From: Pelagomonas calceolata
Taxonomy: Eukaryota
DNA length: 64,000 bases
Reading direction: 5' to 3'
Assembly (NCBI GenBank): GCA_918797485.1
Contig: CAKKNE010000004.1
Location: forward strand, 2,914,001 to 2,978,000
The notes under the pieces were generated by a model. It saw only the letters and a list, made by a program, of their open reading frames with translations, was not told where the DNA came from and did no database searches. Of this stretch, positions 13,401-63,606 are shown in pieces; within the stretch, counting starts at the first letter, position 1; every line of letters starts with the position of its first letter. Both the position numbers and the translations under genes were made by a program.

Positions 13401-15775
13401 TTTTCTTTCGTAGGCGCTTTGGGAGGCAGTCGCGCCGGCGTGTTGAGCGACGCGATGGCTCGACCGGCGCTCTGGAAGAGGAGATCCGATCCGATGGCGA
13501 GGCACATGGCCCCCAACCGCGCCGCGACCGGCCTTAAAGGTGCCAATGCAATCCTCCCTTGCCGGTCCTCCTCCCGCATCTCCGCCAGCTGCCCCCGCTT
13601 GAACCCCAGGTCCTTGATCGTCTCCTCGGCGTCCATGAGCACCTCGCGGTCGTCGAACAAATGGGCCGCAATGCCGGGACCGCGGCGATCCCTGCCGCAG
13701 AGCTTCCAGACGTGGACGTGCTTGCGCATCTCGGCCTGGAAGTCGGGCTTCGCCGCGGCCAGGCGCCCCTCGGCGTTTTTGAGTTCCTCGGCGATCGCAT
13801 TCGTACCGATCGCGTCGTGATCTCCTCCAATCGCCTCGCCGTCCGTCGGCGCCGCGCAGGTGACAAGGGCGCCGAAGAGCCGGTCCTCGGCCGCTTGGGC
13901 TTGGCGGTCCGCCACGGCCCGTTTGAACGCGAGCCGATCCAACGTGCTTGCTAGGGACGGCAGCTCGTGCTGCGCGACGCACTCCCACATGGCACGTGAA
14001 GATAACGCCGCACTCGGGTTGATCTTGACGACGTTGCAGCAGCCTCGCAATCTCGCAGATATAGAATCATCATCTGCAATCAGAAAGAGGTTGAAATTTT
14101 TCGGAGCTACCGCCCGGCCGCCTTGCACGACCGGGAGGAGCTCGAAGGGCAGCAGCGCCTCCCCCACTCCCTCGACGATGAGCCAGTGGCCATGCAAGGC
14201 GTCCGCGAGCGTTTCACTAAAATCCGCGTGCCCTATCCGGCACGAGAGCACGCCCGGCTCCCGCTCGCCCGTCTCCTCGTCGACGAACGTGCCGCGCTGC
14301 GGCCCCGTGGCGACGGCGCATCGCATGATGAACTTCCGCGCGACGCGCAGCGGGTCGATCAGTAAGGGCCACCGCGCGCACAGTAACGTGCAGGCCGCCG
14401 AGACGCCGCTCCCGGGCTCGTCGGCGTAGACCGCGCCCAGCCGCCACTCGAGCGTATCTCTCAAAGCGCCGAGCGTCGCGACCGTCAACGCGTCCGGGTC
14501 CTGGTCACCATGGGAAGGTTGTTGCGGGGCGTCCTCGAGCGCCGCCGGTTCGGATAGAGGAAGCACCTCATCGATACGCTTCCGCCACGCCTCCCAGAGC
14601 TCTAAGCGCTTCTCTAGATCGAGGCTCCCGAGATACGCGCCGGCCGCGCCCGCGAGGAGCGCGTCTCGACATGCATTCTCGCGCGCTGCTTTCAATCCCT
14701 CATATTCACAAGCCCAGCGCACGGCGTCGGCCGTCAGAGCCTCGGCGAACTGCACGGCAACCGTGGACCGCCGCTCGGCAATACCCTTCGCGTCGCCCTG
14801 GGCGAGGCTCGTCTCCTTCGCTTTTCTGTTCGCTTCGTCCAGATCATCCATGCGCTGCGAGATGGCCCCCAGCTCCTCGCGGCATGAGTCCTGCGTCGCC
14901 GCGTCTCCACTCTTCAAAGCCGCGGTCAACTCGTCGTTGAGCTCCGAGGCGCGGCCCTCGAGCGCTTCCCGATCCGCTTTCGCCTTGGCCGCGGCTTTCT
15001 TCTGCTGCGCCGCGATTTGCCCGGCGTTCGCCGTCGCCCACTTGAGCTGCGCCGCGGCCGTCTTCGCCGCGCGCCAGCACGTGAGCGCGCTATTCAAACG
15101 ATCGAGGCGCCGCCCCGTCTCCGCCACCCTCGCTGTATGAGCGCGCGCCGCGTCCCGCAGGAACGCGTGGAAGTGGCCCGGCGTCGCTTTGACATATTTC
15201 GCTGATATCGTGTGGAGGTCCGCCGCGAGCTGCGGCGCGTCCTCTGGCCACTCGGTTAACATAGAACGAGCCAGGTCCGCGCGCGCCGCGGCGTCATCAG
15301 ATCCGCAGCGCACGACGCACGCCGATGTAAAGAGAGCGGGCTCGCGCGCGGCCAGCGCCGCCGTCGCGCGGTTGTCGTCGCCGACCGTCGCGCAGACGAC
15401 GACGCGCAGGCGGCCACGGACGCGCGCCGCGCGCGCCGCGGCTTTCCCCGTGCGACTCGCATCGAAGTCGTCGTCGTCGGCCGTGGCCGCGGCCTCATCA
15501 CAAACCATGGCGGCCGCGAGCGCGCGCCACGCCGCGGCGTCGTCGCCGAGCTCGTCGTCGCCCACGACGATCGTCAATAGGTGCTGCTCGGTGGCTTCTG
15601 TTGGAATTTCCGCCGCTTCCTTCTTGGCGCGCTTTTTCTTGCCCTTCTTGCGAGCCTTCCGGGCCGGCGAGGGCGTCCGCGCGCGACTCTTTTTGGGTTC
15701 TGATTGAGGGGGCGCCGGGGCCGCCGCCTCCTCGACGGCCGGCGCGGGCGCGGGCGCCGGTGATGGTGCTGGCGC

Positions 15776-15807
<32 letters not shown>

Positions 15808-18800: not shown

Positions 18801-21800
18801 CGCGCGAGCGCGTCCTCGTCGTAGGCGGCGCGCGCCGCGGCCGCCGCGTTCACGCACGCGACCACGACGCGGACCGGGCGCGCCGACGCGAGCGCCGCCA
18901 ACGCGGACCACGCGGCGGCGCCTTCGTCCGACCCCGTCCGCGCGGCGGCGGCCGCCCAGCTCGCGTCACCTAGAAGTCTGATGGCGGACGCGAGCCGCCG
19001 GCCGCCGTCGATCGCGCCGGCCGACGTGAAGCCGTGCGCGGCGAGCGCGAGCGCCGCGACGCGGTGAAGGTCGGGCGCCGTCCGCAGAATTGGCCGCGCC
19101 CGCGCCGCCAGCGCGGCTGGGAACCGCGTCGGTAACCCGTCGAAGCAGAGGATGACCGCCGGGCCGTCTTCTCTCGATCCGGGCGGGGGCCGCCGGTGCT
19201 TCGGGCCGTGGGCCTCGTGGGGATGATGCGCCTCCGCGCGCGTCGCGTTTTCCAGTGAGGCGAGGTGCTGCGCCAGCGATGCGATCACATTAGAAGACGC
19301 CCTGGCGACGCCCGCGAGGACTAACCACAGACCGCCGTTCTCGAGGCCCGTGCAGACGCGCCTCAACAACGATTCGTCCACGTCCATGCAGTGGAGGCGG
19401 ACGACGGGCTGCGCCAGCATTTCTCCTAATTTCTCCGCTAGGCTCCGTTTGCCGGTGCCACCGCTGAGTGACGCAGTAACACCAACTCGCAGCGCCGCCA
19501 GAATCTCGAGCATGCATCTTTCACAATTCGGCGTGATGAACAGCGCCTCGCCCGCCGCGCCCCCTCGGTACTCGTCGCCGCAGAAGCGGCGACTCAACGC
19601 CGCCTCGGCGACGACGCGCCCCGCCTCCACGCCGTCCATGGCGATGGCCGCGGGATTCTCGAAGTAGAACCTCAAACGAGCAGCCCAGGCGAAGTCCTCG
19701 CAGGAAGCACACACGCTTTCAATTAACGAATCCGCCGCGTCTCGACCTTCGACCTCGAAGGCCGCAAAAGTTTGCAATTTCTGGAAAGTGTGCCTCGCGT
19801 GGTTTTCTTTCAGGCGTCGCGCCACGGAGTTGATGCGTACGAGTTGCCTCCTCTTTAACTCGTTCGTGCCCACGAAGCCTCTGTCCGTCAACAAACCCTC
19901 GGCCTCCGCCGTGAAGGCGCACCGCGCCGCCAGCAATCCAGAAGCCGCCTGCTGTTGTAAACACCAGGCGCCTCTCCCTGGTTCCTTGAGCATGGCCTCG
20001 GCAGAAGCTTGCGTCAGAGCTTGCACGGCCTCTTTCATACCTTTCTCGAGCTCGTTCAGCCACAACTCACAACGGCCGCCGGCGTCCACATCCTCGGTCT
20101 TCGCGAGTTCCAACGTTTCATGGATATCTTCCTCGTCAAAGGTCGACAGGTCGGCCTTCTTCGCGTAGGGCTCGTGCCGCGCGACCAACGCCTCGATCCT
20201 CAGCGAGTCTCCCACAAAACGGACGTCGGAAACGCCCGGGAAGCACAACACGACAGCTTTCCTCGCTCGTCTTTTCGTTTCGCGGGGGTCCTGGTCGGGG
20301 TCGCCGATCAACAAATCCCACAAGTCTTGTTCCGAGACCATGCAGAGCCGCGCGCAAGCTAATCTGCGAGCTTCCGCGAAGTCATGGATACCGCGCGTGG
20401 CCTCTTCCACATCAATCAAAGCGTCTTCTAATACGTTTTTCAGAGGAGCAAGTCGATCTTGAACTTCAATCACCCTCGCGCGGCCATTCACGCCCTTCGC
20501 GGCAGCACAGCACTTCGCGAGGGCCCTGGTGACTTTCGAGAAGGTCGCCGCCTCGTGGGGCAGCTGCTTCCTTAGGGCGTCGCCGCCGGCGGCAAAGACG
20601 GTAGCCAGGGCCTCCCACTTCCCTTGGACGGTCGCCCACCTTTCTAGCGTTTCCTCGGCTGCGCGCAATCGCGACGCGAGGTTCTTTACAGAAGCGTCGG
20701 CCATGACCGAAGGCGAATTGTCTCCTTCACCTGATAACGGCCCCGTGCGGCAGGCGTCGAGCTCGACCAGACACGTGTCGAAGGCCCTGAACAGCGCCTC
20801 CAACTTCACAAGCTTGTTGCCCGCGACGACGACCTTGGGGTCCTTCATCTTGCCGCTCTTGGCGCGCTCCGCGGGCCTTGTGACTTGGTGAGGCACGATG
20901 TCCAAGAGCTGATTGTTCCAGACGGCCTCGAGGCGGCGCGCCAGCGCCAGGGCCCGGCGGCACCTGTGAGCAGCGTCCGCGAGCCTTGCGACGGCGTGGC
21001 GGTTCTTGACTAAGGAATCGGTGATCCTCCGCACTTCGAAGCCCCTACCAAGAGGAAAGCCTAATAAAGCAGCGAGCTCGGCGCCCCACATTTCGAGGGT
21101 CGAGCACTCGTCTCCTTTTACAACCCAGTCCCGGTCGCCGCCGGCCGCCAGGCCCTTCACCACATAAGTCACGGCGTCGACGACGGGCTTTGCTCGAAAC
21201 GCCGCGGCGTCGAGCCCGCCCTCCAAATCTTGAACACATCGCGCTAGCCAGACCTGGCGCTCCGCCGACGCGACGACGCGCGCCGCGATCAATGACTTCG
21301 TCCAGGCCGGGCCCGCCGGCGCGTCGACGAGGCGGTCGACGTCGCCGTAACTCTCCCTGAGCTTTCCCGCGCCGCACCAGTCGCAGGCCGCGACGACGGC
21401 CGGGTCCTCGCGCGCCACGAGTCTCTCATTAAAAGCCTTCTTCGCGTTCGCGGCGTCCAGCAATGCTTGCCGGTCCGCGAGGATTTTCCCGCCGCGCCGC
21501 GCCAAGTCATAGGTCGGCTGCAGGTGGGCCAGGAAGGCCTCGTCGCGCGCCTCGCCGAGCCTCATGCTGGCAAAGGCGTCCGTCGCCTCGACGTTGTGCT
21601 CGCCAGCCGCGGCGAGGAGGCGGTGGGGCTCGAAGGCGTCGACGAGCGCTTCCAGAGAATCCGCCGGCGTCGGGTCTTTGCTGAGAATGCCCTCGCGCCG
21701 GTTCAAGTCGGCAAGTTCCTGCGTCAGCGCCTCGATGCTCTCCTGGGCGTCCTTGCAATCAGTTGACCGTTTCGCGACGGCCTTCAAGGCCCCGTCGAAG

Positions 21801-24800
21801 GCCGCGTCGCCCCGGAATCGCGCGGCGTCGTACTGGCACGCTTTCCGCACGAGCACCGCGGCCTCGGCCAGGCGCTCCTCGTACTCCGCCCTATCATCAT
21901 CTAAACGTTCCGTGTGCTGCGCGCGCATGCGTACGCATTCACCCTTGGCGCGTTTCAAGGATTTCAGCACTTTTGGTTCCCACGCTCTATCAGCTCGCGC
22001 GATGCACATGCCCTCGACGGCGTTGAGGGGCCTTCCATGTAACGCGCAGAGCTCCGCTATATTAGACGCGTCTCTGGCTGTGGCCAATATAGGCTTTATG
22101 AGCTGAGGCACCACTTCCACGAACTTTTCAACAGCCACGGTCGTCTCGGCGTCCGAGCAGGGCGTATCTAAAACAGCTTTGATTTTGCGCCATCGCGTCT
22201 CGCACCACGTCCCGATCAGGTAGCATTGGTCCGCGTGGCCATCCAACGTGTCGCGCCGCACGCCATGCAACGCGCGCAGCAGCGACCGCCGCGCGATGCT
22301 AGCGTCGCACTCCGTCAGGGCGCAGAGGCGCCGCGGCGAGGCGTCCAACGATGCTGACGCGGACTCGATCGTGGTCTTGCCTTCATTAAGTTCCCGGGCG
22401 ATCGTGCGGACATCTTTCGGGAGCGCGGGCGGCGCGGGGCCCAATCCTCCCTTCTTGACGGCGTTGCGCGCGCGACCCAAGGACGTGTCGGCGGGCTCCA
22501 GCTCGCACTCTTCATCATCAAGGTCGTGCGACCGCACATCCTCGGCATAGTTCCTTTTTAGTGACAGCTCGGCCGAGTCGCGGCCGCGCATCTCCCGCTC
22601 AAGCATGGCGCCGACGTCCCGCACATAAGTCGCGACCGGGTCCGCGGCCGTCGCCGCGCAGGCCCGCAGGCGCCGGAGGGCGTCGCGGACCCACGCCGGC
22701 TGCGCCTCCGACGCGCCGTCCCAGGGGCACGTGATCGCGCGCGGCGGCACGTACTGCAGATGACTTAGGGCGGAGACGCAGGGGTCGCCGCAGCGCGCGC
22801 AGCCCTCGAACAGCTTCTGGAGCGGCATGACCAAAGCGGCGGCGATGTCGGCGTCGCGGAGCTGGCCCTTCTTCGCAAAGGACCACTGCTTCTGGACCTT
22901 GCGCTTCTCCGAGGCCGTCATGTCGTCATTTAGATCATCCTTTATGTCGATGTCGAGGTCGAGGCGGAACCAGGGTTTTCGTAGGAATCGATCGTCCCTA
23001 CAAGTCTCCTCGACGGCTTCGACGTATCTCGCAGTCGCGATCCGCAGCGCCGTATCCAGCTCCGTGGCCATGGCGTACCGCGTCCGCTCCAGCAAGCGCC
23101 GCAGCGGCTCCTGGGGCGACTTGCGCGTGTCGAAGAGGTCCCCGTGGTACTCGACGCGCGTCGGGTCGAAGCACGGCTCCACGAGGCCGGTCAGGCCTGT
23201 CCGCAAGGCCTCGCCGACGTCCTTCGGCCAGGTTTTCTCAACGGCCGGGAGGCCTTTACTCAGGACCTCGGAGAAGAGGCGCTGAAAGGCCGCCGGCGAG
23301 AGCTGTACAGGGCGGTGGACAAGGAATGTGGCATCTAACGAATGCGTCGCAATGATCTTTTGAGCCCCCTGCGTCGCGCACAGAGCAAATCTGGAGCCCA
23401 CAAACGGGTGCAATTCGTTAAAATGGCCGTCGTCGTGCTTATCAACCACATCATCAGGAAAATGGATCTCCCGCGTCAAGCCGGCCTTGAGCGGCAGGAC
23501 GACCGGTTTTCGAGCGGGCGAGGCATTACCATCAATACGGTAGCCCTCGTCCGCCGTCGGTTCGTCAGAAGTGCCCCACTTACTTGAAATCCAATTCGCA
23601 TGTTGTCCCTCCTCCACATCCTCGTCATCAATCGCTTCCGAAGCCTCAGGAGCGACGTGGAGCAGGGCGTGCTTCGCCAGGAGGAACCGCCGGTGCGTAT
23701 CCTTCGAAACGAAGGCGTCCCTGTCAAAATCATCAAGTTCGGCCGTACAGTAACCCGGCGCGAACTTGACCGCCAGGGCATCCAACGCAGGCAAATCTAA
23801 TGTCCCGTCCGACGAGAGGAAGCGCACGTCTCTCGATGGAGCCTCGCCGGCGAAGGCTGCCTTGGCCAACTGGGCGAATATAAAACCCTGCATCTCGATG
23901 ACGTAGTCGCGCTCGGCCTCGTCCATTTCCTTGGCTAATTGAACATCGTTGCGCCAGGGCTTCGTTTCTCTATGTACACGTTCGTCTAAAGTGGGAAAGA
24001 GCTCGTTCCTCAAATTTGCGATGACTTTTTTGCACAAAGGCGCCGACGCGAAGAAGTGGCGGAGGCGTAGTCTTTCTTCACAAGCGGCGCGCCTTATAAG
24101 AGCCCCCTGCAACCGATTGATCGACACGAACCGGTCCTGCCAGGCACCGATCGTCGCGACGGCCGGGACCCAACTTTCAGGCGGCCAGGGGTCGTCGAAC
24201 CATTTCACGCGGTGGTTGCGCCCGTCGCCGTCGTCAGAATGCTGCAAGATGGTACAGGGCACCCACCGCCCCAACCTTCGTTCAAAGTCCGAGACCTGAT
24301 CACTCGGCGAGCGGTCCTGCCGCAACGCGACGGCCACGGGCTTTCCACCATACTTCCGCCAAGCTATGGTAGCGACCTCGACGTGGTCCGCGTCGTCAAA
24401 AATATGTAGGGGTAGCTGGGGCGCGTGGCTCAGGATCGCGCCGCCCTCTTTTGTGGAAGCCCAATCGGACATGAGCGCCCGCGCGGCGTCGCCTAAAGGC
24501 ATTTGATGGATCTCCTCGAGGCGCGCGGCGGCCTTGCGTTTCTTAATAGCGTCGCGCTGCTTTTGGGGCATCGCCGCCTTCCGAGGCCCGTCGATTTTTT
24601 GGGACGCGGAGAACTCGCTCCGCGGGTCCAAATGGGGCGGCTCGCAGCAGCCGACGCCCGGGTCCCGCTCAATTATGATAGGAGGCGGCGGCGTCTTCGG
24701 GCGCGGGGCCTCGAGGTTATCCAAGTCCATTGGTTGAACCACCCTCTTTCTTTTACTTAACTTGATGGGAGTGGGCTTTCTCACTCTAGGAACACTCCCA

Positions 24801-25819
24801 CTAATATGCGTCTCGGCGTAGCGCCTTAATAAAGCCTTGGAGCCGTCGTCGGCCTTCGCCAGATCGGAAAACGTGTCGACGAAGGCAGAAGCCGTCGAAA
24901 AAGCTAACGCAGCACCGCGCGCCTCGGCCTTATTCGGTCTTCCAGTATACCGCTTCTTTTGTTTAGGTTGGTAGTAGACGCCCGGCTTCTTCTCAACTTT
25001 CGGCTTCTTCTCCTTGGTAGCACCAGAGGGTGTAGTCGCCCGCGACTCCAAACCGCGCATTTGTTTGGAATATTCCGTCAATTGGTGCATCTGGGGCCCG
25101 TGGTCCTTCATGAAGTGCATGAACTCGTCGACGTCGACCAGGCCTGAAAAATCAACATCCAAAGCCCGCCAGAGGCCCCGCAGTTCGTCCAACGTTAAAT
25201 CTGCTTCACTGAGGTTGAGGCCGGGGTCCCGCATGCGCGTCACACCTTCGAGTTCTTCGAAGCCCATTCTTCCCGATTCATCGGTGTCGAAGTGGCCAAA
25301 AATTTTGAACCAGTTGCCGTCCGTGACACCGCTGCCCTCCTTCGAATATTCATGTACACATGCATCGTTCAGCTGCTGGCAGATGCGTTGTAAAGTTGCC
25401 TTCTGGAGCACGGGCCAGTCATCTAATATGAGCAAGTAGCAGGCGTGCTGGAACTCGTCGATGGTCACTTCGCCGCTCTTGTCGTGGTCCACATACGCCC
25501 ACAATCCTTCCAACTCTTCTTCTTTTATCTCCCCTTCCTTCCGGGGGACCTTGGAGTCCTTGCTTCGGATCGGGATCTCCAGCACGTCGGTGAGCGCGGT
25601 CTTGAACTCGTCGTAGTCGAGGCGGCCGCTCTTGTCCGTGTCGAGGCGCTCGAAGAGTAACGACCAGTTCTTGCGCATGCAGCCCTTGACGTCCCACTTC
25701 TCGTAGAGCTTGGGAAACGCGTCGTTCATGCGGAGCACGACGCTCCGCAGCACGGGCGCCGGGAGGCCGCTGGTCTCGTGCTGGTCGTGCCGCGTCGGGC
25801 GGCGGTTTTCCGAGACCAT
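10487..25819 (-). CDS. Highly divergent dynein heavy chain-like protein with N-terminal EF-hands (5110 aa, no intron needed)
   Basis: Linker-region motifs (LERWATVQGKWEALATVF; EARRLACARLCMVSEQDLWDLL), AAA1 entry EYRG..LFITPNCERC, AAA2 GPAGCGKS, RLWAHECRRCLADRL, AAA4 GHVVLLGGAASGRRTVARL, RWPLLIDP, C-terminal IEGARWD and YRCPVF; four EF loops at the N-terminus. Confidence 0.9.
15700..15890 (-). repeat. Pro-Ala low-complexity coding repeat inside the AAA4 region of the dynein
   Basis: APAPAPAPAPGPAPAPAPSPAPAPAP followed by a Lys-rich patch. Confidence 0.7.
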
Positions 25820-28598: not shown

Positions 28599-30897
28599 AT
28601 GGTGACGCGCTACGAGTACTTCGACAGCCGCAACAACCGCTGGAACCCCTACGACGCGGCGACGTGCGCGTTTCTGGAGAGCGCCGAGCAGGCAAACCCG
28701 AATGCGATCGTGCAGTTGCAGGGTTTGCCCTTCCAAGTGCGATTTGGCCAGAATGCCCGCTCCCAGAAGATGGTGTCGTCGACGGGCATTCTCCAAGTGA
28801 ACGTCAATACCGAAAACTCGCGCGACGTCCGGAGGGTGGCACCGATGCAGCCGCAGCAACAGCAGACGGTGCAGGTCCAAGTACCGCCCAACGCGTATCC
28901 CGGCATGCACGTCCAAGCCCGGATCCCCGACGGCCGGACGATCGACGTGCCGATCCCGGCGGGGGTCATGCCCGGCCAGATAATCTCCGTGGCCGTACCG
29001 GCGCAGGCGCCGCCGATGATGCCGCGGCTCCAGAATCCGGGCGCCGCGCAGCGACCCCAGATGCCGGCGGTCGGCGGCCCCGTGATGCCGCAAATGCCGA
29101 CGATGCAGCGCGGGAATCCGCAGATGCCGGCGATGCCCGGGCAGTACGCGCGGCCCCAGCACGCCGGCGACTTCGTCGGTCCGCCGGCGCAGCGACCCGT
29201 CGGCGGCGGCGCCGCCGCGGCGATCTGGACGCAGCTGGAGATGCGCGACTGCCCCGAGATCGTCGGTCAAGCGCTGAATGAAATGGGCCCCGCGGTCTTC
29301 GCCGAGACGCCCATGGACAACATGCGGCGGACCATCGTCCACAAGGCGTGTAGCTTCGGGCGGCTCCAGACGCTGCAGGCCATCGGGGCCGTGCTGCAGG
29401 CCGCGGGGCGGAACGCGCTGCTCAACCAGCAGGACGCGACGGGCAAGCGCAGCATCGACTACGCGGCGAAACGGGGCCAGGCGCACGTCGTGAAGTGGCT
29501 CCTCGAGCACGGCGCGCCGGTCAGCCAGGCCCAGTCTTTAGGTGCGCAGCACCCCGCCGTCGCGGCGCTCTTCGGCGCGCAAGCGCCCCAGGGCGGCGCC
29601 GTCAACGCGGCGCGCGCGCTCGCGAGCTCACCAAAGCCGGACGACGACCTCACGGCGTTCCTCAAGGAATGGGGCCTCGAGGAGCACGAGGCCGACTTGC
29701 GAGGTATTGGGGTAGACGACGTCCGGACCTGTGTGGAAATCAAAATTTTACGGCGCGTTCGTGCTGAATCATCGCATCGTCCTCCACGCCATCGACGCGA
29801 CGCCTGCTCGATGGCGTGGCGATGCCAGTTCCTCACCGCTCGACCGAGCCAGCACGGCCACGTCATCGCCGAGAAATGACTTAGTGAAGAATTGTCGGGT
29901 GCACCCGACGCACTGGTTGATTTTCACACAGGTCCGGACGCTCGGAACTTTTGAAGAGCACGAGCTGAAGGGCATCGCCAATGAATTAGGAATGAATTTT
30001 GGCCACGGCCACAAGTTCGCGGACGCCTGCAAGCAGGTGCGGAACAAGACGCACGCCCCGCCGCCGGGCTTAGGTGATGACGCCGCCGCCCTGCTCCTGC
30101 AAAAAATGAACGCCATCGAGCAGCAGGGACAGGCGCGCGACAGGGCCATCGCGGACGTCACGCAGGGCCTGCACCACATCGACGAGGGCGTGCACCACAT
30201 CGACGCGACGACGACGAAGACGGCGCAGAGCGTGGAGCAGATCAAGGCCAAGCTCGACGAGGTCGTCGCGAAGACGCGCGGCCAGACGCGCCTCCTGGCC
30301 GACCTGTGTAGTGGCACGACGGAGTGCCCGAAGCTCGTGTGGATGGCCCGCGCCGACCCCAAGGGCCTCGCGAGCTGGATCTCGCCGAGCGCGTGGTACG
30401 GGAAAAAGGTGAAGATCCAGTTCGTCTGCCCCGTATCGATGAAGGTCGGCCCGGGGCCGGGCTTCGAGTTGACCCTATCAAAGGACTGGATGAAGAAGTA
30501 CGGCGTCGCGCTCAACGTCTCGCTGGGCATCCTGCGGCTGGCGATGCAGGTCGGCGCCGCGGCCATGGGCTGCCACCACTGCCACATCGCGGACATGTCC
30601 GTCGACCGCGCTCGATTAAAGAACGCGGACGACCTCTACGCCGAGGTGACCAAGGGCCTGGACAAGGACCAGCAGGAGGCGCTCGAGAAGGGCGCGCCGC
30701 TCGGGAAGCAGCTCGCCGAGGCGTCCTTCCAGATGCTCCTGCGCGACATCATGAAGGAGCACGGGGAGCACCCCAACTTCGGCCTCGTCAAGGTGGTCTG
30801 CGACAAGTCGCCGAACGAGGGCGTCGAGTGGGTCCACCCGGACTGCGTCGAGGCGTTCCGGGAGAAGGGGCTGTCGTTGCTGCGGCCTAAGAAATAG
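28599..30897 (+). CDS. WWE + ankyrin + SAM-like + coiled coil + COR-C-terminal-like multidomain protein; exons 28599-29720 and 29932-30897
   Basis: WWE-like YEYFD...WNPYD..TCAFLE...QVNVNTENSRDVRR; ankyrin repeats; SAM-like LTAFLKEWGLEEHEADLRGIGVDD|VRTL...ELGMNFGH is rejoined by removing the introner. Confidence 0.85.
29721..29931 (+). mobile_element. Full-length introner element forming a 211-bp GT-AG intron
   Basis: Element 29729-29931 with TIRs CTGTGTGGAAATCAA/TTGATTTTCACACAG; perfect 8-bp TSD GTCCGGAC (29721-29728 and 29932-29939); highly similar to 57820-58024. Confidence 0.95.
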
Positions 30898-48474: not shown

Positions 48475-50288
48475 TCAGAAGTTCGCCGGTGCCACGTGGT
48501 TGATCTTCGTCCCCTTGAACTCCTCTTCCTCCGTCATCGCGCCGAAGCGGTCGAAATAGACCTGCGGGGGAATCGGGTTGAAGGAGAGAAGTTGCGCCGA
48601 GAAATGACACGGGGCACGACGATGACCACGATCATGTAGCACAGCGGCAGGGCGACCATCGCGGCGAGGTCGAGATATCCCGCGACGCGCCTTGCGACGA
48701 TTTCCGACGAGTCGCTCAGCTCGTGGTCCGTGACGAGATCTTCGAGGCGCGCGCCGCCGAGGCCTTCGCCCGGGGCCTCTTCGTCGCTGCCGCCAGCTTT
48801 TGTGCCGGGTTCGGGAGCGACGGCTTTCGTCGACGGTTGGCGGCGCCTCAGGCCCGGACTGTTCGACGAGTTTGCTTCCGACATGGTGCTTTCGCTGAGG
48901 TCCTTCTGGTCGTTGGCCGCCTGGACCCTTCTTAGCACAAATGCCTTGCGTTTGCGCCGTTCGAGCTTCACAAAGGGGATGAGGATGATCCCGACGATAT
49001 ACGAGTGATAGGCCGCTAGGCCGTCCGTCTCGTAGATGTCGCCCACAAGATCGTACCAGACCGGAAGCGTTAATCGCTGTCCGTGGAGCGAGTCCAGCTT
49101 CTTTCGTAGTTTCTGTAGCTTAGCTGGTGGCAGTCCTAACTTCTTGACCGCATTCTCCACCTCTTTTTTGTCGAGATCGCCGCTTTCATCGGTGTCGGCC
49201 TTCACGAACGCGCTGACCAGCTCGTATTCCGACATCACGCCAGTCGAAGATTTCACGCCATAGAGCGATACGGATAGCACGGACACGGCGAGTGTCGTCC
49301 ACGAAAACGCGAAAGAAAGAACATATAGCAAACTAATAATCGTCATATTACCTGTCTTCGGCAGCACCTCAAACGCCACAATGTAGAGCGCTGCGCTTGT
49401 GAGCAGACACGTGATCCCGAGCGAGATGCGTTCCCCTGATTGTGGGTTTGCCACGAACGCCAGGAACCCTGCGAGCGTCGTGAGGATCATGGGCACGACG
49501 AGGCCGTAGTTATACGTCTCGCTGTGACGCCGCATTCGAAACTTGTACTTTACTATCGGGTAGGGTTCCGGACAGCACCCGTAAATGAAATCAATAGCTG
49601 CAGTTCGTACCTCCACTAAATCGAACTCGGGGTTCGGTCGGTACGAGGCAGCGAGGGTAAAAGGCGCGGGTTCGTCTCCCCCTCTAGGCTTGATGTCGAC
49701 CTGGAAGCCATGAGTTGACCAGCAACCAAATTCGAATTCACATGTCTGCTCGTCGAAGGGAAACGTGCGCGGCTTCATAGGGCAGGGTAATCTCGTCTCG
49801 ACAGGAACGGATTGCCACACGCCGCCGCTCGAGTACACGTTAGGCTGCACGCCGCCTGGTACCTGAAACACGCTTTCTACCGCCTCGTACACGATTGTGT
49901 CCGGGATCCAGATCTGTTTGTGCTCGTCGTGGCCAAAAAACGTTAACTCGGTGATACCGCCCCAATGATCCGGATTCCACGCTAATCGAGGATCCGTCCA
50001 CGAGTGCCGCCACCACGAGAAGAATCTTATCTCTTGATTCGTGGTATCGAGCTCTTGGAATTGCTGCAGCGCCAACTGAACCGAGACGAGTGCGCCGCGC
50101 TCCGAACCAAAGTGGGGTGGTTGTATCGTCATGTCGTAATTAGCGAGCAGCGCTTGTTTGAGCAGGGTCATATTACGCTGCTTGTAGCATTCCGCATTTG
50201 TGCAGGTAGTGTCGAGGGCCAGACCGACTGGGCCTGCCGCGTGGGCCAGTGGAAGCGCGACGAGGATTAGCGCTGCCCAGCCCGCCAT
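48475..50288 (-). CDS. Cys-loop ligand-gated ion channel paralog 2 with EF-hand; exons 50288-48621 (or 48618) and 48561-48475
   Basis: CPMKPRTFPFDEQTC, FGCWS, YGCCPEPY, SGERISLGITCLLT and EF loop DTDESGDLDKKE; splicing restores the tail VYFDRFGAM...HVAPANF matching paralog 1. Confidence 0.93.
48562..48620 (-). other. GT-AG intron (59 bp, or 56 bp with donor at 48617), absent from paralog 1
   Basis: Pyrimidine-rich ...TTCCCCCGCAG acceptor; removal restores homology with 7145-7235. Confidence 0.8.
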
Positions 50289-55961: not shown

Positions 55962-58900
55962 TTAAATCTCGATCTGCACGGCGAGCGCGTCCTTGTAGTG
56001 GCAGTTGTGCCCGTAGAAGCCCTGGAAGCACTTGCACTGCCCCGTCTCGTGGTCGCAGAAGCCTCGGTTCGAGCAGTCGACGTGACAGAGGTTGCCGGGC
56101 TCGCCGACGCCGTGACCGCCCTTGGCGAGCACGCCCGTGCAGTTCGTCTCGTCGCGCGCCGTCATCGGGTCGTCGCCCGACGGGCAGTGCTGCGCCGCGC
56201 AGGTCGGTCCAAAATATTCGGGCTCCTGCGTCTCGCCGGGCCCCAGGCCGACGGGCCAGGACGAGTCGCAGACGCAGCCGTAGAGGCGCATCGCGTCCCA
56301 CGTGCCGTCGTCGCGGCCGTGCGCGTGGTGCTCGTAGTAGGGCACGTGGTCGCCCGCGTGGTAGCCGCTGACGTTGTTCTTCGAGAGCGGGAGCGCGTTG
56401 GGCAGCATCGAGAGCTGCTTCATCGTCGCGCACGTGCCGTGGCCCGAGCAGTCGCCCGTCTCGGCGCTCCCACCGGGGCAGACCCGCCGCTCGCACGCTG
56501 GGCCGAAGAAATTCGCGAAACAACTGCATTTGCCGGCGGCCGTGCAGAGGCCCGCGCCCGAGCAGGGCAGCCGCCGGTAGTGGGCCCACGTGTTGTCGCC
56601 GGCGCCTCCGGGATGCCAGGGCAGATCGGCCCAAGCCTGTGTAGAAATCGAATGTCTGCCCCGCGCCATAAATGCGTCTGCTCGACGGCGCGCCGATTTC
56701 CACACCGGTCGGAGCCATGCCCGTCGGACAGTTGATCGCCTCGCAGCTGTACGACGTGTACGAGTTGTCCACCGCGCTGTGGGCGTGCGGGCACCGGCAC
56801 GTGGACGTGCAGTGGTCGCACTCGCCCTTGCCCGTGCAGAAGCCGAGGGACTTGCAGCCGTCGCCGATGGCGTTGGCCTCGTCGATGGGCCGGGGCGCGA
56901 CGACCTCGACGCCTGACACGTACGTCGAATCGATTTCCAGCGTGTGGTCCAACGTGTCCTTCAAGAGGAACACTTTTACCCCGTCCACGTGAGCCGCGGC
57001 AGTTGTCCCGTGTTGCGCCCGGGTTACGGTCAATGCGTTAGTAGCAACGTTAGTTATCAACATAACCTCGCTGCCGATCAGGATGTACGAATTCACGGCC
57101 GCGCCAAGACCAGCCGTGTTCAAGTCCACATTTACGGTTGTAGCACTATCAGTAAGTGCACCATCTAGAGTTGACTCAGTTAATCGATATACCATACTCC
57201 CGTCGGTGTGATCAACAGCCGTCGTACCGTCTTGGGCGCGGGTCACGGTCAGATCGTTAGTAGAGACGGCCGTAACTAACATAACCTCGCTGCCGATCCG
57301 GATGTAAGAATTAACCGCCGCAAACAGACCGGGATCATTCAGAGTCACCGAAAGGGTAGTATCAGCAGCAGCCAAGTTCGCATTACCGTCCCCGGCATCA
57401 CTAACAGTCGTCTGGGTTATGCGATATACTTTCGCGCCATCGGCGTGCGCGGCCGCGGTCGTTCCGTCTTGACCCCTTGTTACTGTAAGATCGTTCGTAG
57501 ACACGGCCGTGACCAACATAACCTCGCTGCCGATTAAGATGTAGCTGTTGGCGACCGCACCAAGAGTAGTTCCAGAAGTCACCGTAAGCGTGGTATCACT
57601 CTTGCTAAAGGCGGCGCCTTCATTAATAGTTGTCTCCGTTATCTGTTTTGCGTAGGGCTCCATCACTGTTTTCACATTGCTTTTGAGCAGGAACACCTTC
57701 GCCGCGTCGAGGTGTGTAGTAGCCGTCGTTCCATCCTGTCCGCGGATTACGGTCAGAGAGTTCGTCGAGACGGCCGTGACTTTGAGAACTTCGCTTCCGA
57801 TCAGTATATAAGTGTTCGCCTGTGTGTGGAAATCAAAGTCTTACGGCACGTTCGTCCTGAATCGCCGCGTCGACCTCCACGCCATCGACGCGACGCCTGC
57901 TCGATGGCGTGGCGATGCCGGTTCCCCACCGCTCGACGGAGCCAGCGCGGCCACGTAGTCGCCGAGAAATGACTTAGTGAAGAATTATCGCGTGCACCCG
58001 ACACACTGGTTGATTTCCACACAGGTGTTCGCAGCCGCGCCGAGACCGCCGGTGTTGAGATCCACATTAACGGTCGTGGCACTATCAGCAAGGGCTCCGT
58101 CGAGGGTCGACTCCGTCAAGAGATATACTTTCGCTCCGTCAACGTGTGCAGAAGCAGTCGTTGAGGCTTGAGCTCGGGTTACGGTCAAAGCTTCACTAGA
58201 TACAGCGCCACTCACTAACATAACCTCGCTGCCAATTAAGATGTAGGAGTTTTGAGCGACACCGAGAGCGGTATGACCACCGGTAGCCAGCGTAACAGTT
58301 GTAACAGCATTATCAATTGCACCGTCTAGAGTATTCTCAGGGTACGCCTTCTTGACGTACTCGTAGACCCGCTGGCCCGCCCGGCGCACGGACATGGTCT
58401 GGTTTACGTAGGGCCCGGGCATGCCGCATTGCGGCCGGAGCTGCTGCCGGGGCACGATGACCTCGACGGTCGTCCCGGCGCGGATGTACTGCAGCGCCGT
58501 GAGCACGAGCGTCGAGTTCAGGAAGCCCGCGCGGTGCGCCTCGTAGCAGCAGCCCTCCTCCCACGAGCCCGAGAGCCACGTCGAGTTGCCGATGACTGCC
58601 AGGTCGTCGCGGACCGCTACGTAGTAGTCATCGCTCCCGGGTATGCCATCAGCCTTCCCCGAGGTCCAGCCAGCCATCTGAACGCGGACGCGGTCGCCGA
58701 CGTAGAGGTGGATCGCGCCTGTGTTCAAGTCAACCAGTGAGTCGGGGATTCAGAGACGCGCCGCGACAATTTGATTTATGCACTGATTCGCACTGCGGAA
58801 ACGGACCTCAATCTGCGCTGACTCCTTAGGGATCGCCGGTCGGAACTTGAGACGCGTGTCCGTCATGTAGCATGTCAGGTCGACGGCGTCCGACTTGTTG

Positions 58901-59394
58901 ACCGGCCGGATGTACTGGGCCTTGGCGTCCTTGTAGACGAAGCCTTTGACGCGCATCAGTGAGCTGTTCGCCGGCGAGCCGCAGTTCGGCCGGATGTCGT
59001 TCGACGCGTCGATGACGACCGTGTGCCGGTAGCCCGCCGTGCCGATCACGTCATATTTCGCCTTGAGGATGATATACGAGTCGTTGTACATGTTGTCGAC
59101 GCTCCCCTCGTAGTACTCGGCCTGCCACTCGTCGTTGCCCGACGGCGCGCCGAGCAGCACGAGGCCGTCGCTGATCTTCCCGCCGTTGCCATTATTACAC
59201 CCGCCCCTGGTAAATTGGTTTAGGTAGAAGTAGACCGTGTCCAGGTGTTGCAGGCCGCCCGCAATCTCGAAGGTTAGTGTTATCTCGGTCGGCGCGCACT
59301 TCTCGGGCGGCGGCGGGTAGAAACTTATCTCCGCATAGTCGATGTCGCCCCGCACCAGGAGCGCGAGGAGGCAGCCCACGAGGCGGCGGGCCAT
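55962..59394 (-). CDS. Secreted EGF-like protein of the tubular mastigoneme (Ocm/Sig-type) family with inserted tandem repeats; exons 59394-58794, 58718-58033, 57819-56716, 56636-55962
   Basis: Signal peptide; C-terminal CPTGMAWAD, CSGAGLC, CSGHGTC, WDAMRLYGCVCD, CPSGDDP and HVDCSNRGFCDHETGQCKCFQGFYGHNC; four ORF pieces join in frame across three introns. Confidence 0.82.
56637..56715 (-). mobile_element. Short decayed introner forming a GC-AG intron (79 bp)
   Basis: GCTCCGAC-CGGTGTGGAAATCG...CGATTTCTACACAG-GCTTGGGC; removal restores CPTGM|AWADLP in frame. Confidence 0.8.
56962..58335 (-). repeat. Five tandem ~75-aa coding repeats with AT-richer codon use
   Basis: Consensus T(L/I)DGALxDSxTTVxV...NSYILIGSEVMLVTAVSTNxLTVTR(G/A)QDGTTAxxHxDGAKVY. 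Confidence 0.9.
57820..58032 (-). mobile_element. Full-length introner in inverted orientation forming a GC-AG intron (213 bp)
   Basis: Element 57820-58024 closely matches 29729-29931 on the + strand while the host gene is on the - strand; perfect TSD GTGTTCGC at 57812-57819 and 58025-58032. Confidence 0.93.
58719..58793 (-). mobile_element. Short decayed introner forming a GT-AG intron (75 bp)
   Basis: GTGCGAAT-CAGTGCATAAATCAAA...CACTGGTTGACTTGAACACAG-GCGCGATC; contains an in-frame stop and removal keeps frame. Confidence 0.78.
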
Positions 59395-59871: not shown

Positions 59872-62800
59872 ATGGCCCCCAGCCTGGCGGGAGCGGCCCA
59901 GGACCTGCGCGACGAGCTCGGCGCCGTCGACGTGCACAGCGACATCTCCGAGCCGGACACGAGCGACGACGAGGTCGCGCGCGCGACGGCGACGGCGAAG
60001 CGCACCGCCTCAAAGGACCTCGAGAGCCGCATGGCGCGCATCCGGGAGCAGGGGAAGAACAAACCGCCCACGAAGCCGCACTGGACCCGCGCGCGGCCCG
60101 AGGACGACGGACCGAGCGAGATGTCGGCCGCCGCGGCGGAGCTGCGCGGCGCGTTCGACGCGGACTACGAGGCCGAGGAGGCCGAGGAGGCGTCGCCCGT
60201 CCGGCGCCGGGCCGACTCGCCGGCGATGCCTCGCGCGCGCAACGAGACGCAGGTCATGCTCGAGGAAGCGGCGAGGCGCCTCAGCCCCGAGCCCCCGGTC
60301 CTGAGCTGGCGCCGCGGCGACGCCGTGAGCTGCAAGTTCCGCGCCACGGGCAAGTGGGTCGACGCGACGGTGCTCGGCCCCGCCGCGGCGACGGCCAAGG
60401 GGCCCGCGGGCTACGACGTCAAGTACGAGGACGGCGGCGTCGTCGAGCGCCACGTGCCGCCGACGCTCCTCCGGCCGCGCGAGGGCGCCGAGCGCGACGC
60501 CGGGCCGTCGAAGGGCTTCGGGCGCGTCGACGCCGCCGCGGCGCCCGCGGCGCCCGCGGCGCCGAAGCCGCCCCGGCCCGCGCGGCCGGCGCCGCCGCGG
60601 CCCAAGGCCGCGCAGGAAGCCAAGGCCGCGCCGCCGGCGCACGTCGCGCAAGACTCGGCGCCCCGGCCCGAAGCCAAGGCGCCGCCGCCCGCAAATGTGG
60701 CGCAGGACGCGCCAGCTGGCCCGCCGGAACCCAAGCCGGCTACTGACGCGCCCCCTGCCCAGCCCGGGGCCAAGGCGCCGCCGCCGGCGCACGTCGCCCA
60801 GGACGCGTCGTCGCCGGCTCCGCCGGAGCCCAAGCCGGCTCCCGCGGATGCGCCGCCCGCCAAGGCCCCGCCGCCCGCAAATGTGGCACAAGACGCACCA
60901 GTGCCAGAGCCCAAGCCGGCTCCTGCGAACGCGCCACCTGCCCAACCGGAGCCCAAGCCGGCTCCTGACGCGCCGCCCGCCCGGCCGGGGGCCAAGGCCC
61001 CGCCGCCGGCAAACGTGGCACAAGATACACCACCTGTCCAGCCGGAGCCCAAGCCAAGCGCCCAGGACGCGCCGGCGGCCAAGGCCCCGCCGCCCCCGAC
61101 CGTCGTACAGGACGCGCCGGTCCCAAGGCCCGAGGCCGCGGCGCCGCCGCCCCGAGCTGTGCCCCGGCCGGCCCCGGAGCCGGAAAAGCCTTGGGTGCCG
61201 AAGCGCGCGGACCTCGCCGACGAGGAGGAGAAGGACGAGCCGCTGCCGTCGGACGACGAGCCCTCAGCCGACGAGGCGGAGGACGCGGAGCCGCCGGTCT
61301 TCGTGGCGGCCGAGGATCTCGCGCCGCGCTGGCACCGCGGCGACCGCGCGCTCGTCCGCGACGGCGGCACGTCGAATTTTCTCGAAGGCAAGGTCGCGCA
61401 CACGCTGCCGAACGGCGGCGCCGCCGTCAAGTTCGGCACGGAAACTATTGACGTCGACGCGGGACGCCTCAAGCCGCCCCAAGACGTCTTCGCGCGCGCC
61501 GCGGCGGCCGCGTCGGTGCAGCTCCGCGCCTTTTTGTTAGGACGCAGCGGCGGCGGCACGCCGCAGGAGCAGCGGCGGAACTTAGTAAAGGCCTTCAAGG
61601 CCGCGGACGCCGACCGGAGCGGCACGATGGACCGCAACGAGTTCCTCGCGCTCCTCAAGGACGCGGGCCTGCGCGTGGACGTCGACCGGGCCACGGCGCG
61701 CGCGGACGTCAGGATCGTAAAGTGCCCCGCGCCGCGGGCGCCCGTCGAGCTCGACCACGCGGCCGTCGCCGTGCTCGTGGCGCGCCGCGCGTCGGGCGAC
61801 ATCAAAGCCGGGGACGAGCTGCTTAGTATCGGCGAGAAGACCGTGAAGCGCGAGGCGGACCGTTTGAGAGGCGACGACGACTTGGACCTGGCGACGCTGC
61901 CCGCGGCGATGCTCAAGCACAAAGGAGAGTGGCGCGTGCGGCGCACGACCGCCAAGTACCTATCAAAACGCGAGGCCGACGCGCTGATGCGATGCGTCGG
62001 GCTCTCGCTCGACGACGCGACGTCGCTCGAGAATATTGTGAGCTTTGCCTTTGACGACGCACCGGAGGGCCAGGAACCGGAGTTGGCCGTGGCCATGGAC
62101 GCGGCCGCCCGGTGTTTACGGGGCAACACGGAGGACGACGTGGACGCGGCCTTCGACGCGTGTCGAAAAGCCCTCGGCACGACGGCGACGACCATCGAGA
62201 CGACGAAGCTCGTATCATATCTGTGTCAAGCGGACCTGGACTTGCCGGCGCCCGGCTACGGTTTAGGCGGCCCCCAGGACGACGAGGGGTCGTCGAGGCG
62301 GGGCCTCACGCCGCGGCAGGCCCACCTCGTGGTGCGGCGCTGCCTCGACCCGTCGGGCGACGGCGTCGTCACGAAGGACGAGTTCTCCGCCTTTGCGTTC
62401 TGGCCGACGCGCACCGTCGAGGGTTTGAGGAGAGCGGCGCTGACGGCGGCGTTTCAATTGCCGGACGACGGCGATTTGACGCCGGGTAGGAGGTTGTTTA
62501 CGGCCCTGGACGAGGACGGCAATGGGTGTTTGGGAAGGGCTGAATTAGCCCGCGGCCTGGCGCGATTGGGCGCTCCTTTACTGCCGAACGAGCGCCGACT
62601 GTTATCGCAAGCGCTGGATGTGGATGGAGACGGCGCGACGACGCGCAAGGAGTTCCTCACGTTCTTGGGTGAGAAAGTTGATGATCTCGACGACAGGATT
62701 GTGCCCACGCCGAAGAAGGTGCCGGTGGTGCCGAAGCCGTCTCCCCGAAGACCGCGCCGGCCCGAGGCGAGTTACCACCCCAAGCCCAAGGTCAGCGAGA

Positions 62801-63606
62801 AGACGAAGGAGGCTTTGGCGGTCTGGATCACGCGCTGTCTAGCATTGGAGGAGGACAACAAGGGTCTGAATCGGAAGGTCCGCGAGCTGGCGCGGGACCT
62901 GAAGAAGGCCGTGCGTCCTAAAGCGGAGGAGCCCGACCCGGAACTCGCGATGGAACTAGAGGCGCTGGCCGCGAAGAACGACGCGCTCGAGGTCCAGGTC
63001 GCCGAATTTGAGTTGTGGAAGACGGAGACGCTGAAACAGCACGACGACGAAAAGACTACGATCAGGGCGGAGCTCGAGGAGTCGTACCGCGAGCGCGTCC
63101 GCACGGCGGAAGCTGGCCAGCGGAAAGACATGTTAAACGCGAAGCGCTTGCAACGCGAGCTCGCCGCGTTGAAGGCCCAGAAGGAGACGAAAGTAGTAGT
63201 AAAAGACGCCTACTTCAGCCGCAAGGGTTCCACGTCGATCATCAAGGAGAAGGAGGCCCTCCAGGCCAAACTGAAAGATAGGGACGCAGAGATCGCCGAT
63301 TTGAAATACCGGATAGAGCGCTACAAGAAGGGCGAACGGGCCCTCCATCGGGCGTGGCAGAAGGCTTGCGTCAGAGGCGATAAATATCGCGAGGCCGCGC
63401 GGGCGACGGAGGTCGACTGCGTGAATCGACTGCGACGGACAAAGTCGCAGATGGACGAGGCGTGTTTGAAGGCCGAGGGCGCCGTCGACGAGTCCGTCCT
63501 CCCGTCCGAGGAGGACGTGCAACGCCTGACCAAGCAGGAGACGCGCGCGTTTCGGGGCCGGCGCCAGTTCCCCGCGGCGAGCGCGTCGACGGTCGAGATT
63601 TCCTAA
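59872..63606 (+). CDS. Multidomain protein with Tudor/SH3-like modules, Pro-rich repeats, several EF-hands and a C-terminal coiled coil
   Basis: WRRGDAVSCKF..KWVDATV..YDVKYEDG; EF loops DADRSGTMDRNE, DPSGDGVVTKDE, DEDGNGCLGRAE and DVDGDGATTRKE; ATG at 59872. Confidence 0.85.
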   Translation: MAPSLAGAAQDLRDELGAVDVHSDISEPDTSDDEVARATATAKRTASKDLESRMARIREQGKNKPPTKPHWTRARPEDDGPSEMSAAAAELRGAFDADYEAEEAEEASPVRRRADSPAMPRARNETQVMLEEAARRLSPEPPVLSWRRGDAVSCKFRATGKWVDATVLGPAAATAKGPAGYDVKYEDGGVVERHVPPTLLRPREGAERDAGPSKGFGRVDAAAAPAAPAAPKPPRPARPAPPRPKAAQEAKAAPPAHVAQDSAPRPEAKAPPPANVAQDAPAGPPEPKPATDAPPAQPGAKAPPPAHVAQDASSPAPPEPKPAPADAPPAKAPPPANVAQDAPVPEPKPAPANAPPAQPEPKPAPDAPPARPGAKAPPPANVAQDTPPVQPEPKPSAQDAPAAKAPPPPTVVQDAPVPRPEAAAPPPRAVPRPAPEPEKPWVPKRADLADEEEKDEPLPSDDEPSADEAEDAEPPVFVAAEDLAPRWHRGDRALVRDGGTSNFLEGKVAHTLPNGGAAVKFGTETIDVDAGRLKPPQDVFARAAAAASVQLRAFLLGRSGGGTPQEQRRNLVKAFKAADADRSGTMDRNEFLALLKDAGLRVDVDRATARADVRIVKCPAPRAPVELDHAAVAVLVARRASGDIKAGDELLSIGEKTVKREADRLRGDDDLDLATLPAAMLKHKGEWRVRRTTAKYLSKREADALMRCVGLSLDDATSLENIVSFAFDDAPEGQEPELAVAMDAAARCLRGNTEDDVDAAFDACRKALGTTATTIETTKLVSYLCQADLDLPAPGYGLGGPQDDEGSSRRGLTPRQAHLVVRRCLDPSGDGVVTKDEFSAFAFWPTRTVEGLRRAALTAAFQLPDDGDLTPGRRLFTALDEDGNGCLGRAELARGLARLGAPLLPNERRLLSQALDVDGDGATTRKEFLTFLGEKVDDLDDRIVPTPKKVPVVPKPSPRRPRRPEASYHPKPKVSEKTKEALAVWITRCLALEEDNKGLNRKVRELARDLKKAVRPKAEEPDPELAMELEALAAKNDALEVQVAEFELWKTETLKQHDDEKTTIRAELEESYRERVRTAEAGQRKDMLNAKRLQRELAALKAQKETKVVVKDAYFSRKGSTSIIKEKEALQAKLKDRDAEIADLKYRIERYKKGERALHRAWQKACVRGDKYREAARATEVDCVNRLRRTKSQMDEACLKAEGAVDESVLPSEEDVQRLTKQETRAFRGRRQFPAASASTVEIS
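60615..61140 (+). repeat. Coding minisatellite-like Pro/Ala repeats
   Basis: Six AKA(A/P)PP(A/P)xV(A/V)QD units interspersed with PEPKP units. Confidence 0.85.

Follow-up and report, generated by a model that had tools for sequence, protein, structure and literature searches.

A hypervariable phage-type beta-barrel inserted in mastigoneme-family proteins of the alga Pelagomonas calceolata

Introduction

Stramenopiles are defined by their tubular hairs, which are usually regarded as mechanical structures that evolve little. The flagellum of Pelagomonas calceolata, a globally abundant alga, bears such hairs. For the solved structure of a tubular mastigoneme (9UFE), the proteins go by the names Ocm1-6 / Sig1-3 (Ochromonas-type names as deposited), and two papers link the Sig family to mastigonemes (PMC4700764, PMC12618581).

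Two other kinds of described system are similar to what we report here. First, phage virions contain small accessory barrels that are inserted in larger scaffold proteins. The P. calceolata barrel has the same fold and is detectably homologous; unlike the phage versions, it is encoded in the nucleus of a eukaryote by a gene that has spliceosomal introns, it occurs in tandem, and it is hypervariable. Second, Borrelia VlsE, Neisseria pilin, and trypanosome VSG are surface proteins that vary by segmental gene conversion. The P. calceolata barrels share with these systems a constant frame, a variable cassette, patchwork tracts, and exchange between loci. They differ in that the organism is a free-living alga, no switching was seen within a culture, and the variable unit is a whole domain that was, in all probability, captured from phages.

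Virus domain capture and cassette surface variation are each known, and their combination on stramenopile flagellar-hair proteins appears to be new. We found no report of this insertion in the literature within our reach, which left out most subscription papers. Our preferred reading, to which we give a probability of about 55%, is that viruses or grazers exert selection on the hairs and that the captured barrel makes their outer surface variable; the location of these proteins on the hairs is putative. Several proteins of the hair family carry this extremely polymorphic domain, very probably of phage origin, next to flanks that hardly vary. If the preferred reading is true, an alga that ranks among the most numerous eukaryotes uses a phage virion domain to vary its surface.

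Results and discussion

Gene structure and expression

The window is a stretch of 64,000 nucleotides from P. calceolata. The gene under study and its parts are:

59394-55962, minus strand: host gene, four exons, 1021 amino acids, no internal stops
58794..59394, minus strand: exon 1, encodes the hydrophobic N-terminus (~16 aa) plus the host protein's first N-terminal beta domain
58719..58793, minus strand: intron 1, 75 nt, GT-AG, spliced in 63 and 159 reads
58033..58718, minus strand: exon 2, runs from the second N-terminal domain through the entry linker and repeat 1 into repeat 2
58339..58386, minus strand: entry linker, aa 312-327 (16 aa), host-like GC3, missing from the closest relative (P0001)
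58114..58338, minus strand: barrel repeat 1, aa 328-402, groups in the tree with a sister unit from an Ocm2-like gene (support 99/94)
57682..58113, minus strand: barrel repeat 2, aa 403-475, split by the 213-nt intron 2
57820..58032, minus strand: intron 2, 213 nt, introner-type element that interrupts barrel repeat 2
56716..57819, minus strand: exon 3, end of repeat 2 and onward through the block to the first EGF-like module
57637..57681, minus strand: internal linker, 15 aa, resembles a second exit/entry linker
57415..57636, minus strand: barrel repeat 3, aa 491-564, the most phage-like (53 of 73 residues identical to L008)
57178..57414, minus strand: barrel repeat 4, aa 565-643
56959..57177, minus strand: barrel repeat 5, aa 644-716
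56914..56958, minus strand: exit linker, aa 717-731 (15 aa), host-like GC3, missing from P0001
56716..56913, minus strand: remainder of exon 3, final strand of the host domain followed by the first of the EGF-like modules in the mastigoneme core
56637..56715, minus strand: intron 3, 79 nt, GC-AG, spliced in 257 and 171 reads
55962..56636, minus strand: exon 4, Cys-rich EGF-like core of the Ocm/Sig type and stop codon

Raw RNA reads (two runs of one sample), together with RNA contigs (a different sample), show that all three introns are excised exactly and that a minus-strand transcript runs through the repeat block. The gene's RNA depth in culture is 45-480. Amino acids 1-797 are identical to P. 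calceolata protein CAH0374282.1, whose public annotation misses the GC-AG third intron. The position of the hydrophobic N-terminus is conserved among homologues, and these ~16 residues are likely a signal peptide.

The host protein belongs to the mastigoneme family

Using a profile of 15 insert-free homologues, we found that the Cys-rich half of the protein is colinear with all six tubular mastigoneme chains of 9UFE (E = 2e-35 to 2e-21); the next PDB match had E = 0.002. Exon 4 has EGF-like Pfam matches and 135 homologues. Among the 120 matches listed, the named ones are from pelagophytes, a bolidophyte, brown algae, oomycetes, Ochromonas, and Phaeomonas, as expected for a family of stramenopiles that have flagellate stages. 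By its colinear EGF-like core and C-terminal EGF module, the gene is classified as a member of the mastigoneme (Ocm/Sig) family. The initial annotation had called it a mastigoneme-type protein, and this holds for family membership, with the hair location being putative.

The N-terminal 330 amino acids, a two-domain region that the 9UFE subunits do not have, matched none of the 9UFE chains. The gene is thus a paralogue rather than a solved shaft subunit. We considered whether it is the orthologue of a solved subunit (OCM1-6) and rejected this, as the N-terminal region has no counterpart; it was the Ocm2-like protein P0434 that matched a chain along its full length instead, with its domains in the same order.

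A five-unit block at a variable turn

The block comprises five units of 73-79 amino acids each (aa 328-716; 58338-56959 on the minus strand), with pairwise identities of 53-75%. The initial annotation had described five cysteine-free units of ~75 amino acids, and its motif (IGSEVMLV...) represents the consensus for the latter half of every unit. There are no cysteines in the block, versus 8 and 27 in the flanks.

The unit is present in just 2 of the 120 homologues listed, both of which are variants of the window gene, and 118 lack it; the block is not a feature of orthologs across the stramenopiles. Similarly, the barrel is in no 9UFE chain and in no named homologue from outside Pelagomonas among the matches. 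P0001 (615 aa) is the closest relative, at 83-86% identity; in place of the 420 residues of the window gene it has 4, as do all 8 members of its cluster that span the junction. By eye, the exit linker is similar to the host strand ahead of the insertion, and it may have arisen by duplication of that strand.

The insertion lies at a turn of variable sequence, close to where the second N-terminal domain ends, and another member of the family, P0017, has up to ~40 extra residues there. Such variability of the linker among family members would suit a neutral or selfish cassette: permissive surface loops would tolerate a stable phage barrel, which would spread and be scrambled by ectopic conversion, and its diversity would reflect relaxed constraint on the loops without diversifying selection. 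We think this is the case with a probability well below that of our preferred reading, and we return to it below.

Low GC3 in the block

The initial annotation had noted more A/T-ending codons in the units, with sharp edges. Indeed, GC3 is 53% in the block (204/383) versus 90% in the flanks (552/611; Fisher p=3.5e-40), and the best two change-points, at codons 327 and 711, are the edges of the block. If we consider only the four-fold codons for Ala, Gly, Pro, Thr, and Val, GC3 is 52% in the block versus 93% in the flanks. The insertion is larger than the low-GC3 part, as it also includes the GC-rich linkers (58386-58339 and 56958-56914).

To put the drop in context, 33 other long open reading frames in the window (some of them spurious) have GC3 of 0.67-0.94, with 100-codon minima of 0.50-0.92; the minimum for the block is 0.39. 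The drop is the deepest in the window, yet of the same order as in other reading frames. Because those frames dip to 0.50-0.92, low GC3 is by itself weak evidence.

The A/T-ending codons are not a trace of donor DNA. Silent sites are near saturation relative to the phages: at four-fold sites, repeat 3 and 157 phage-type units agree in 1079 of 3882 comparisons versus 888 expected, with rows that are not independent of each other. Also, GC3 in donor-type units ranges from 4% to 62%. We therefore rejected the low GC3 as a fresh relic of the donor. The alleles L007 and L012 have GC3 of 0.51-0.52, which is near the GC content of the non-coding DNA around the gene. We infer that the low GC3 is kept by turnover rather than inherited from the donor. 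A GC3 of 53% also equals the GC content of nearby non-coding DNA (50-61%), as would be expected for a barrel that is merely tolerated.

The barrel resembles accessory domains of phage virions

The unit matches tail, tail-fibre, and virion families in PHROGs, with E values down to 9e-25, and 334 stretches in IMG/VR carry it. The barrel family has 5464 cluster representatives at E<=0.001. Repeat 3 is 59-68% identical, over 54 residues, to the tail sheath protein gp18 of P-RSM6, P-TIM40, and S-SZBM1 (6 records). Compared to the nozzle insert of marine podophages, 53 of its 73 residues are identical, and identity reaches 73-74%. Its identity to its four siblings is lower than this, at 60-65%. The other four repeats are 50-59% identical to the best unit from outside the pelagophytes.

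Among 79 metagenome loci, 77 encode phage-type proteins (by motif labels) and two are alleles of the window gene. The phage-type loci encode sheaths of ~925 amino acids with two units, phrog_3287 proteins of ~713 amino acids with one unit, and two others. The phrog_3287 protein is related to the tail nozzle or "stabilization" proteins of HTVC023P-like and CRP-901-like podophages. The closest sequences are the sheaths of Kyanoviridae (66-68% identical to repeat 3) and these nozzles. Unlike in P. calceolata, there are only one or two copies per phage protein, and the DNA identity at four-fold sites is near chance.

No Pfam family reached its cut-off: the best was PF23666 (Rcc01698_C), with 13.2 bits for the window gene and 20.4 bits for P0434, versus a threshold of 27. 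There was no match in NCBIfam. A 4-sequence profile matched no PDB chain, and deeper profiles did.

Given an alignment of 98 rows, one unit (repeat 3) is predicted to fold as a small closed beta-barrel (pLDDT 98, pTM 0.86). A single-sequence fold of three repeats had a pLDDT of 45 and was discarded. We compared the predicted barrel to 48,161 chains. The best match was to an insertion in the capsid of Vibrio phage VP1 (9IN6; Z = 11.6, rmsd of 1.3 A over 70 residues), followed by the Chi tail tip (8VJH; Z = 10.7), the JBD30 baseplate hub (8RK3; Z = 10.4), the GP4 fibre (8JOV; Z = 9.8), and the Mystique tail tube (9N71; Z = 9.3), with rmsd of 1.3-1.8 A across the five. The six best matches (Z = 11.6 to 8.4) comprise these five phage virion entries and a capsule-specific lyase. 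The I-domain of the P22 coat protein (2M5S) is more distant (Z = 6.4). Four of the five best phage structures were also detected by a sequence profile. Foldseek against the PDB gave no match at E<=0.001; its best was 9IN6, at E = 1.4e-3.

These results uphold the resemblance to phage virion modules that the initial annotation suggested, as well as the horizontal origin and amplification of the module. The barrel is very probably of phage origin. We considered a bacterial donor and rejected it: the best match in prokaryotic genomes is 64% identical, and most matches look, as read from their sequences, like prophage capsid or head-tail proteins. A giant-virus intermediate may have been involved, the one structural match being to Bodo saltans virus, at only 39%. 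As to direction, the domain spans proteins of myo-, podo-, and siphophages, versus one pelagophyte lineage among the matches. Because of this contrast, phage-to-alga is the likely direction, and we rejected alga-to-phage transfer. This would be a clear, datable transfer of a domain from phages to a eukaryote, and the array offers a scaffold for testing the function of a widespread, unnamed phage domain.

The same barrel occurs in another eukaryotic alga, Rhodomonas salina (P0179, P0290, and P0349), where, as in P. calceolata, it forms tandem arrays, with up to 11 copies in Rhodomonas proteins. The host proteins are different, and P0179 is only 33-42% identical to the window units. Judging from these differences, the cryptophyte barrels are likely a separate capture.

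If the barrels were adhesins or lectins, they would bind glycans of bacteria, particles, or mucus, the hairs would catch prey or substrates, and variation would widen the range of ligands. The Rhodomonas arrays would fit this idea, as would the barrel's occurrence on tail fibres and tips and the long proteins of surface type that combine it with FG-GAP, PA14, C-type lectin, RTX, and IPT domains. However, the closest donors are sheath and nozzle inserts rather than receptor-binding tips. In addition, typical sugar-binding sites have aromatic residues, in contrast to the barrel unit: there are just 9 Tyr, 4 Phe, and no Trp in 389 amino acids. Finally, PMC11445458 describes a small six-stranded barrel in the JBD30 hub as stabilising, and this is probably the matching domain, because its size and position fit. 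We consider a binding role unlikely, and nothing here supports the adhesive function that the initial annotation proposed. Its other proposal, a decoy for phages, seems implausible because the related phages infect bacteria and because the barrel is a part of the virion, not a receptor.

The barrel in other genes of P. calceolata

The same barrel is found in a giant repeat protein (P0170 and relatives), which has no Pfam or PDB match, and in Ocm2-like proteins, which are homologous to 9UFE chains on both sides of the insert. In the latter, the barrel lies between the positions of residues 307 and 320 of shaft chain 9ufe_BA. Two Ocm2-like genes of P. calceolata encode CAH0379012.1, with one unit, and CAH0377305.1, with two. 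Among 121 Ocm2-like sequences, 80 have the barrel, and the rest are incomplete or from other taxa; none of the 8 named Ocm2-like homologues from Aureococcus have it. An entry linker of related sequence lies ahead of the units in each of the three types of gene. Thus, the barrel is in at least three other genes of this lineage, a sharing that had been overlooked, and the carriers that can be assigned are mostly of the mastigoneme family, which fits poorly with a cassette that is tolerated wherever it lands.

That a structural add-on of phage virions sits in Ocm2-like shaft subunits might suggest that the barrels act mechanically, as beads that thicken or stiffen the hairs and raise thrust, with variation being incidental. 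This would leave the divergent types between invariant flanks, and their replacement in blocks (both described below), unexplained, and we consider it the least probable of the explanations given here.

Variation among wild alleles

The initial annotation had missed the hypervariability of the barrels. Our wild variants are metagenome-assembled proteins along with two loci, and repeats in such assemblies can be mis-joined. In the window gene, the first slot has 5 types among 25 wild proteins, while the upstream flank is 98.7-100% identical. Four of these five types are 57-68% identical to the window. The last slot has 4 types among 33 wild proteins, and the flank after it is 95-100% identical. 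Five arrays could be read from flank to flank, and they have 389, 391, 391, 391, and 75 amino acids. The one-unit array of 75 amino acids (P0236) may be due to assembly collapse; otherwise, it would indicate that copy number varies, as might occur in the absence of selection.

In the Ocm2-like proteins, 69 complete sequences contain 60 different units of 30 types, with a mean identity between types of 40%; these 30 types mix alleles with at least two loci. In contrast, the last 38 residues of these proteins are identical in 61 of 72 rows. Across 57 unique units, E38, V52, R54, and T59 are invariant, and indels are clustered in loops.

The differences between alleles come in patches. In L012, 187 codons match the window exactly before dense blocks of differences appear at codons 408-421 (13 of 14 codons differ) and 529-545; L007 shares both blocks. 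There are signs of exchange between loci as well: one type of unit is common to the window gene and the giant-repeat gene, and P0587 joins the N-terminus of the window gene to the C-terminus of Ocm2 via two barrels (this is a single contig and might be mis-assembled). A variable cassette between conserved flanks, with patchwork tracts, is what segmental gene conversion produces. We also considered a diversity-generating retroelement; this seems unlikely, as the differences affect all four bases and include indels.

Within the window gene, the five repeats differ from each other at 41-74% of four-fold sites. Four of the five share a tract of 17-21 nt, and Tandem Repeats Finder did not report the array. 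The DNA and RNA contigs from culture break at 57280-57309, where the longest repeat within the window is 21 nt; the breaks hint that the genome contains a longer match at another site. In four runs of culture reads, we found no credible variant of the array at a frequency of 5% or more (one short low-level cluster is apparently an artefact of poly-G), and thus nothing indicates that the clone switches.

Can this variation arise without diversifying selection? The conversion tracts hold many silent changes, as a tolerated barrel would predict. On the other hand, every complete wild Ocm2-like protein of the P. calceolata type in our set has retained a barrel in frame, always at this one site (n = 69, selected for having one; 80/121 overall), and the low identity between types differs sharply from the near-invariance of the last 38 residues. 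Overall, we think that a neutral or selfish cassette is improbable, although it is the strongest of the competing explanations.

Another idea is that variable hair surfaces are labels of compatibility between cells, for recognition of mates or of self, as once proposed for the diatom Sig1. High allelic diversity fits with recognition systems, and PMC4700764 presents the hypothesis of a role for Sig1 in gamete adhesion and describes its rapid divergence in Thalassiosira. However, the authors find no positive selection in the sig1 of Ectocarpus and favour a structural role. Also, the window gene is expressed in culture (at the depths given above) without evidence of a sexual stage. We consider this role very unlikely.

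One capture or several

Our trees are built from 72-74 columns and are mostly unresolved; they used 127, 51, or 58 of the over 1250 units. A single capture for all pelagophyte units is not rejected by the AU test, with p = 0.53 (19 of 51 rows) or p = 0.41 (30 of 58 rows). Forcing the units of the window gene into one clade is not rejected at 0.05 (AU p = 0.056). In trees without constraints, the pelagophyte units fall into 2-5 separate groups. Because of these splits and the small number of columns, there may have been several captures.

A model for variable hair surfaces

Under our preferred reading, in which the barrel gives the hairs a variable outer face, a single capture would have occurred in the P. 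calceolata line once it had diverged from its sister, the lineage represented by P0001. The barrel would then have spread among secreted genes of the hair family by ectopic recombination, carrying its short entry and exit linkers along. Ongoing segmental gene conversion would reshuffle the loops while selection holds the barrel core, and turnover in these tracts, which would escape whatever raises GC3 in ordinary exons, would keep GC3 low. We propose that the barrels are displayed as beads that project from the hair, because the barrel enters and leaves by one host loop, as in the sheath, nozzle, capsid, and baseplate proteins of phages. Frequency-dependent selection would be imposed by something that binds the hair surface, putatively and most likely algal viruses or grazers. 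The barrels are a concrete, amplifiable marker for testing how open-ocean algae vary their surfaces against viruses and grazers.

More tentatively, and we are inclined to doubt this fuller version, there could be a population-wide system of surface variation, with barrels on several hair subunits. Viruses or grazers would provide the pressure under which gene conversion shuffles these barrels between loci, and marine phages that share the alga's habitat would have supplied new ones on more than one occasion. In that case, repeat 3 would have been captured later than the highly diverged Ocm2 units.

An introner within the array

Intron 2, which interrupts barrel repeat 2, has terminal inverted repeats and an 8-nt flanking direct repeat (a target-site duplication). 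It has a very high copy number (a depth of 333,840 versus ~180), and a second copy in the window, at 29730-29933, is 91% identical. It is missing from the alleles L007 and L012, so its presence is polymorphic. With many near-identical copies and clean splicing as well, intron 2 has the features of an introner. According to PMC9481584, P. calceolata has a peak of introns at ~210 bp.

Barrels in other carriers

The same phage-virion-type β-barrel was found in three proteins from the cryptophyte Rhodomonas salina (P0179, P0290, and P0349), and the cryptophyte proteins hold up to 11 copies of it. The barrel in these proteins is likely to represent a separate capture by a eukaryote. P0182, P0298, P0287, and P0288 are counted with these proteins. 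The barrel also occurs in very long proteins (7,456–7,472 amino acids) with up to 32 copies, along with FG-GAP, PA14, and C-type lectin domains.

Among the Ocm2-like proteins (P0435–P0523), which are relatives of the mastigoneme shaft subunit, it is not only the barrel that varies widely: the host shaft domain does so too. Among wild sequences, identity is 61–96% across 135 amino acids of this domain, and in the named P. calceolata protein, CAH0377305.1, the shaft domain has an additional insertion of about 55 amino acids. In the giant repeat protein (P0170, P0173, P0178, P0199, and P0211), the barrel array is preceded by two different host contexts. We compared this protein to Pfam and to PDB and found no match.

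Many genomes of Planctomycetota code for a conserved, roughly 395-amino-acid protein that has the barrel inserted (L175–L239). This protein appears to resemble the major capsid protein of the VP1 type (from a Vibrio phage), and it might be the capsid of a widespread prophage or transfer agent.

Introns of the mastigoneme-family gene

Intron features
57820–58032 (intron 2) and, elsewhere in the window, 29730–29933: high-copy introner-type element
56637–56715 (intron 3): GC-AG intron with degenerate introner-like ends

In DNA reads, the introner-type element has about 1,800 times single-copy depth. Wild alleles differ in where it lies within their barrel arrays, and two of them (L007 and L012) lack it at the 57820–58032 site. 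The public annotation (CAH0374282.1) translates the GC-AG intron as coding, so its C-terminus is frameshifted and false. Many wild alleles have an extra intron in exon 4, which has none in the window.

Other genes

Other genes of the window
59872–63603, plus strand: 1,244-amino-acid gene that combines tandem repeats rich in Pro and Ala with EF-hands and a tail of coiled-coil-like character
10490–25819, minus strand: one open frame, about 5,110 amino acids long, for a divergent dynein heavy chain that carries EF-hands at its N-terminus
48537–50288, minus strand: pentameric ligand-gated ion-channel-like gene (PF02931/PF02932)

The first of these neighbors the mastigoneme-family gene, and we saw no connection between it and the barrel insertion. 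By eye, the channel-like gene has an EF-hand-like loop, and its C-terminal part is similar to an ORF at 7148–7957 (minus strand; this similarity was also judged only by eye).
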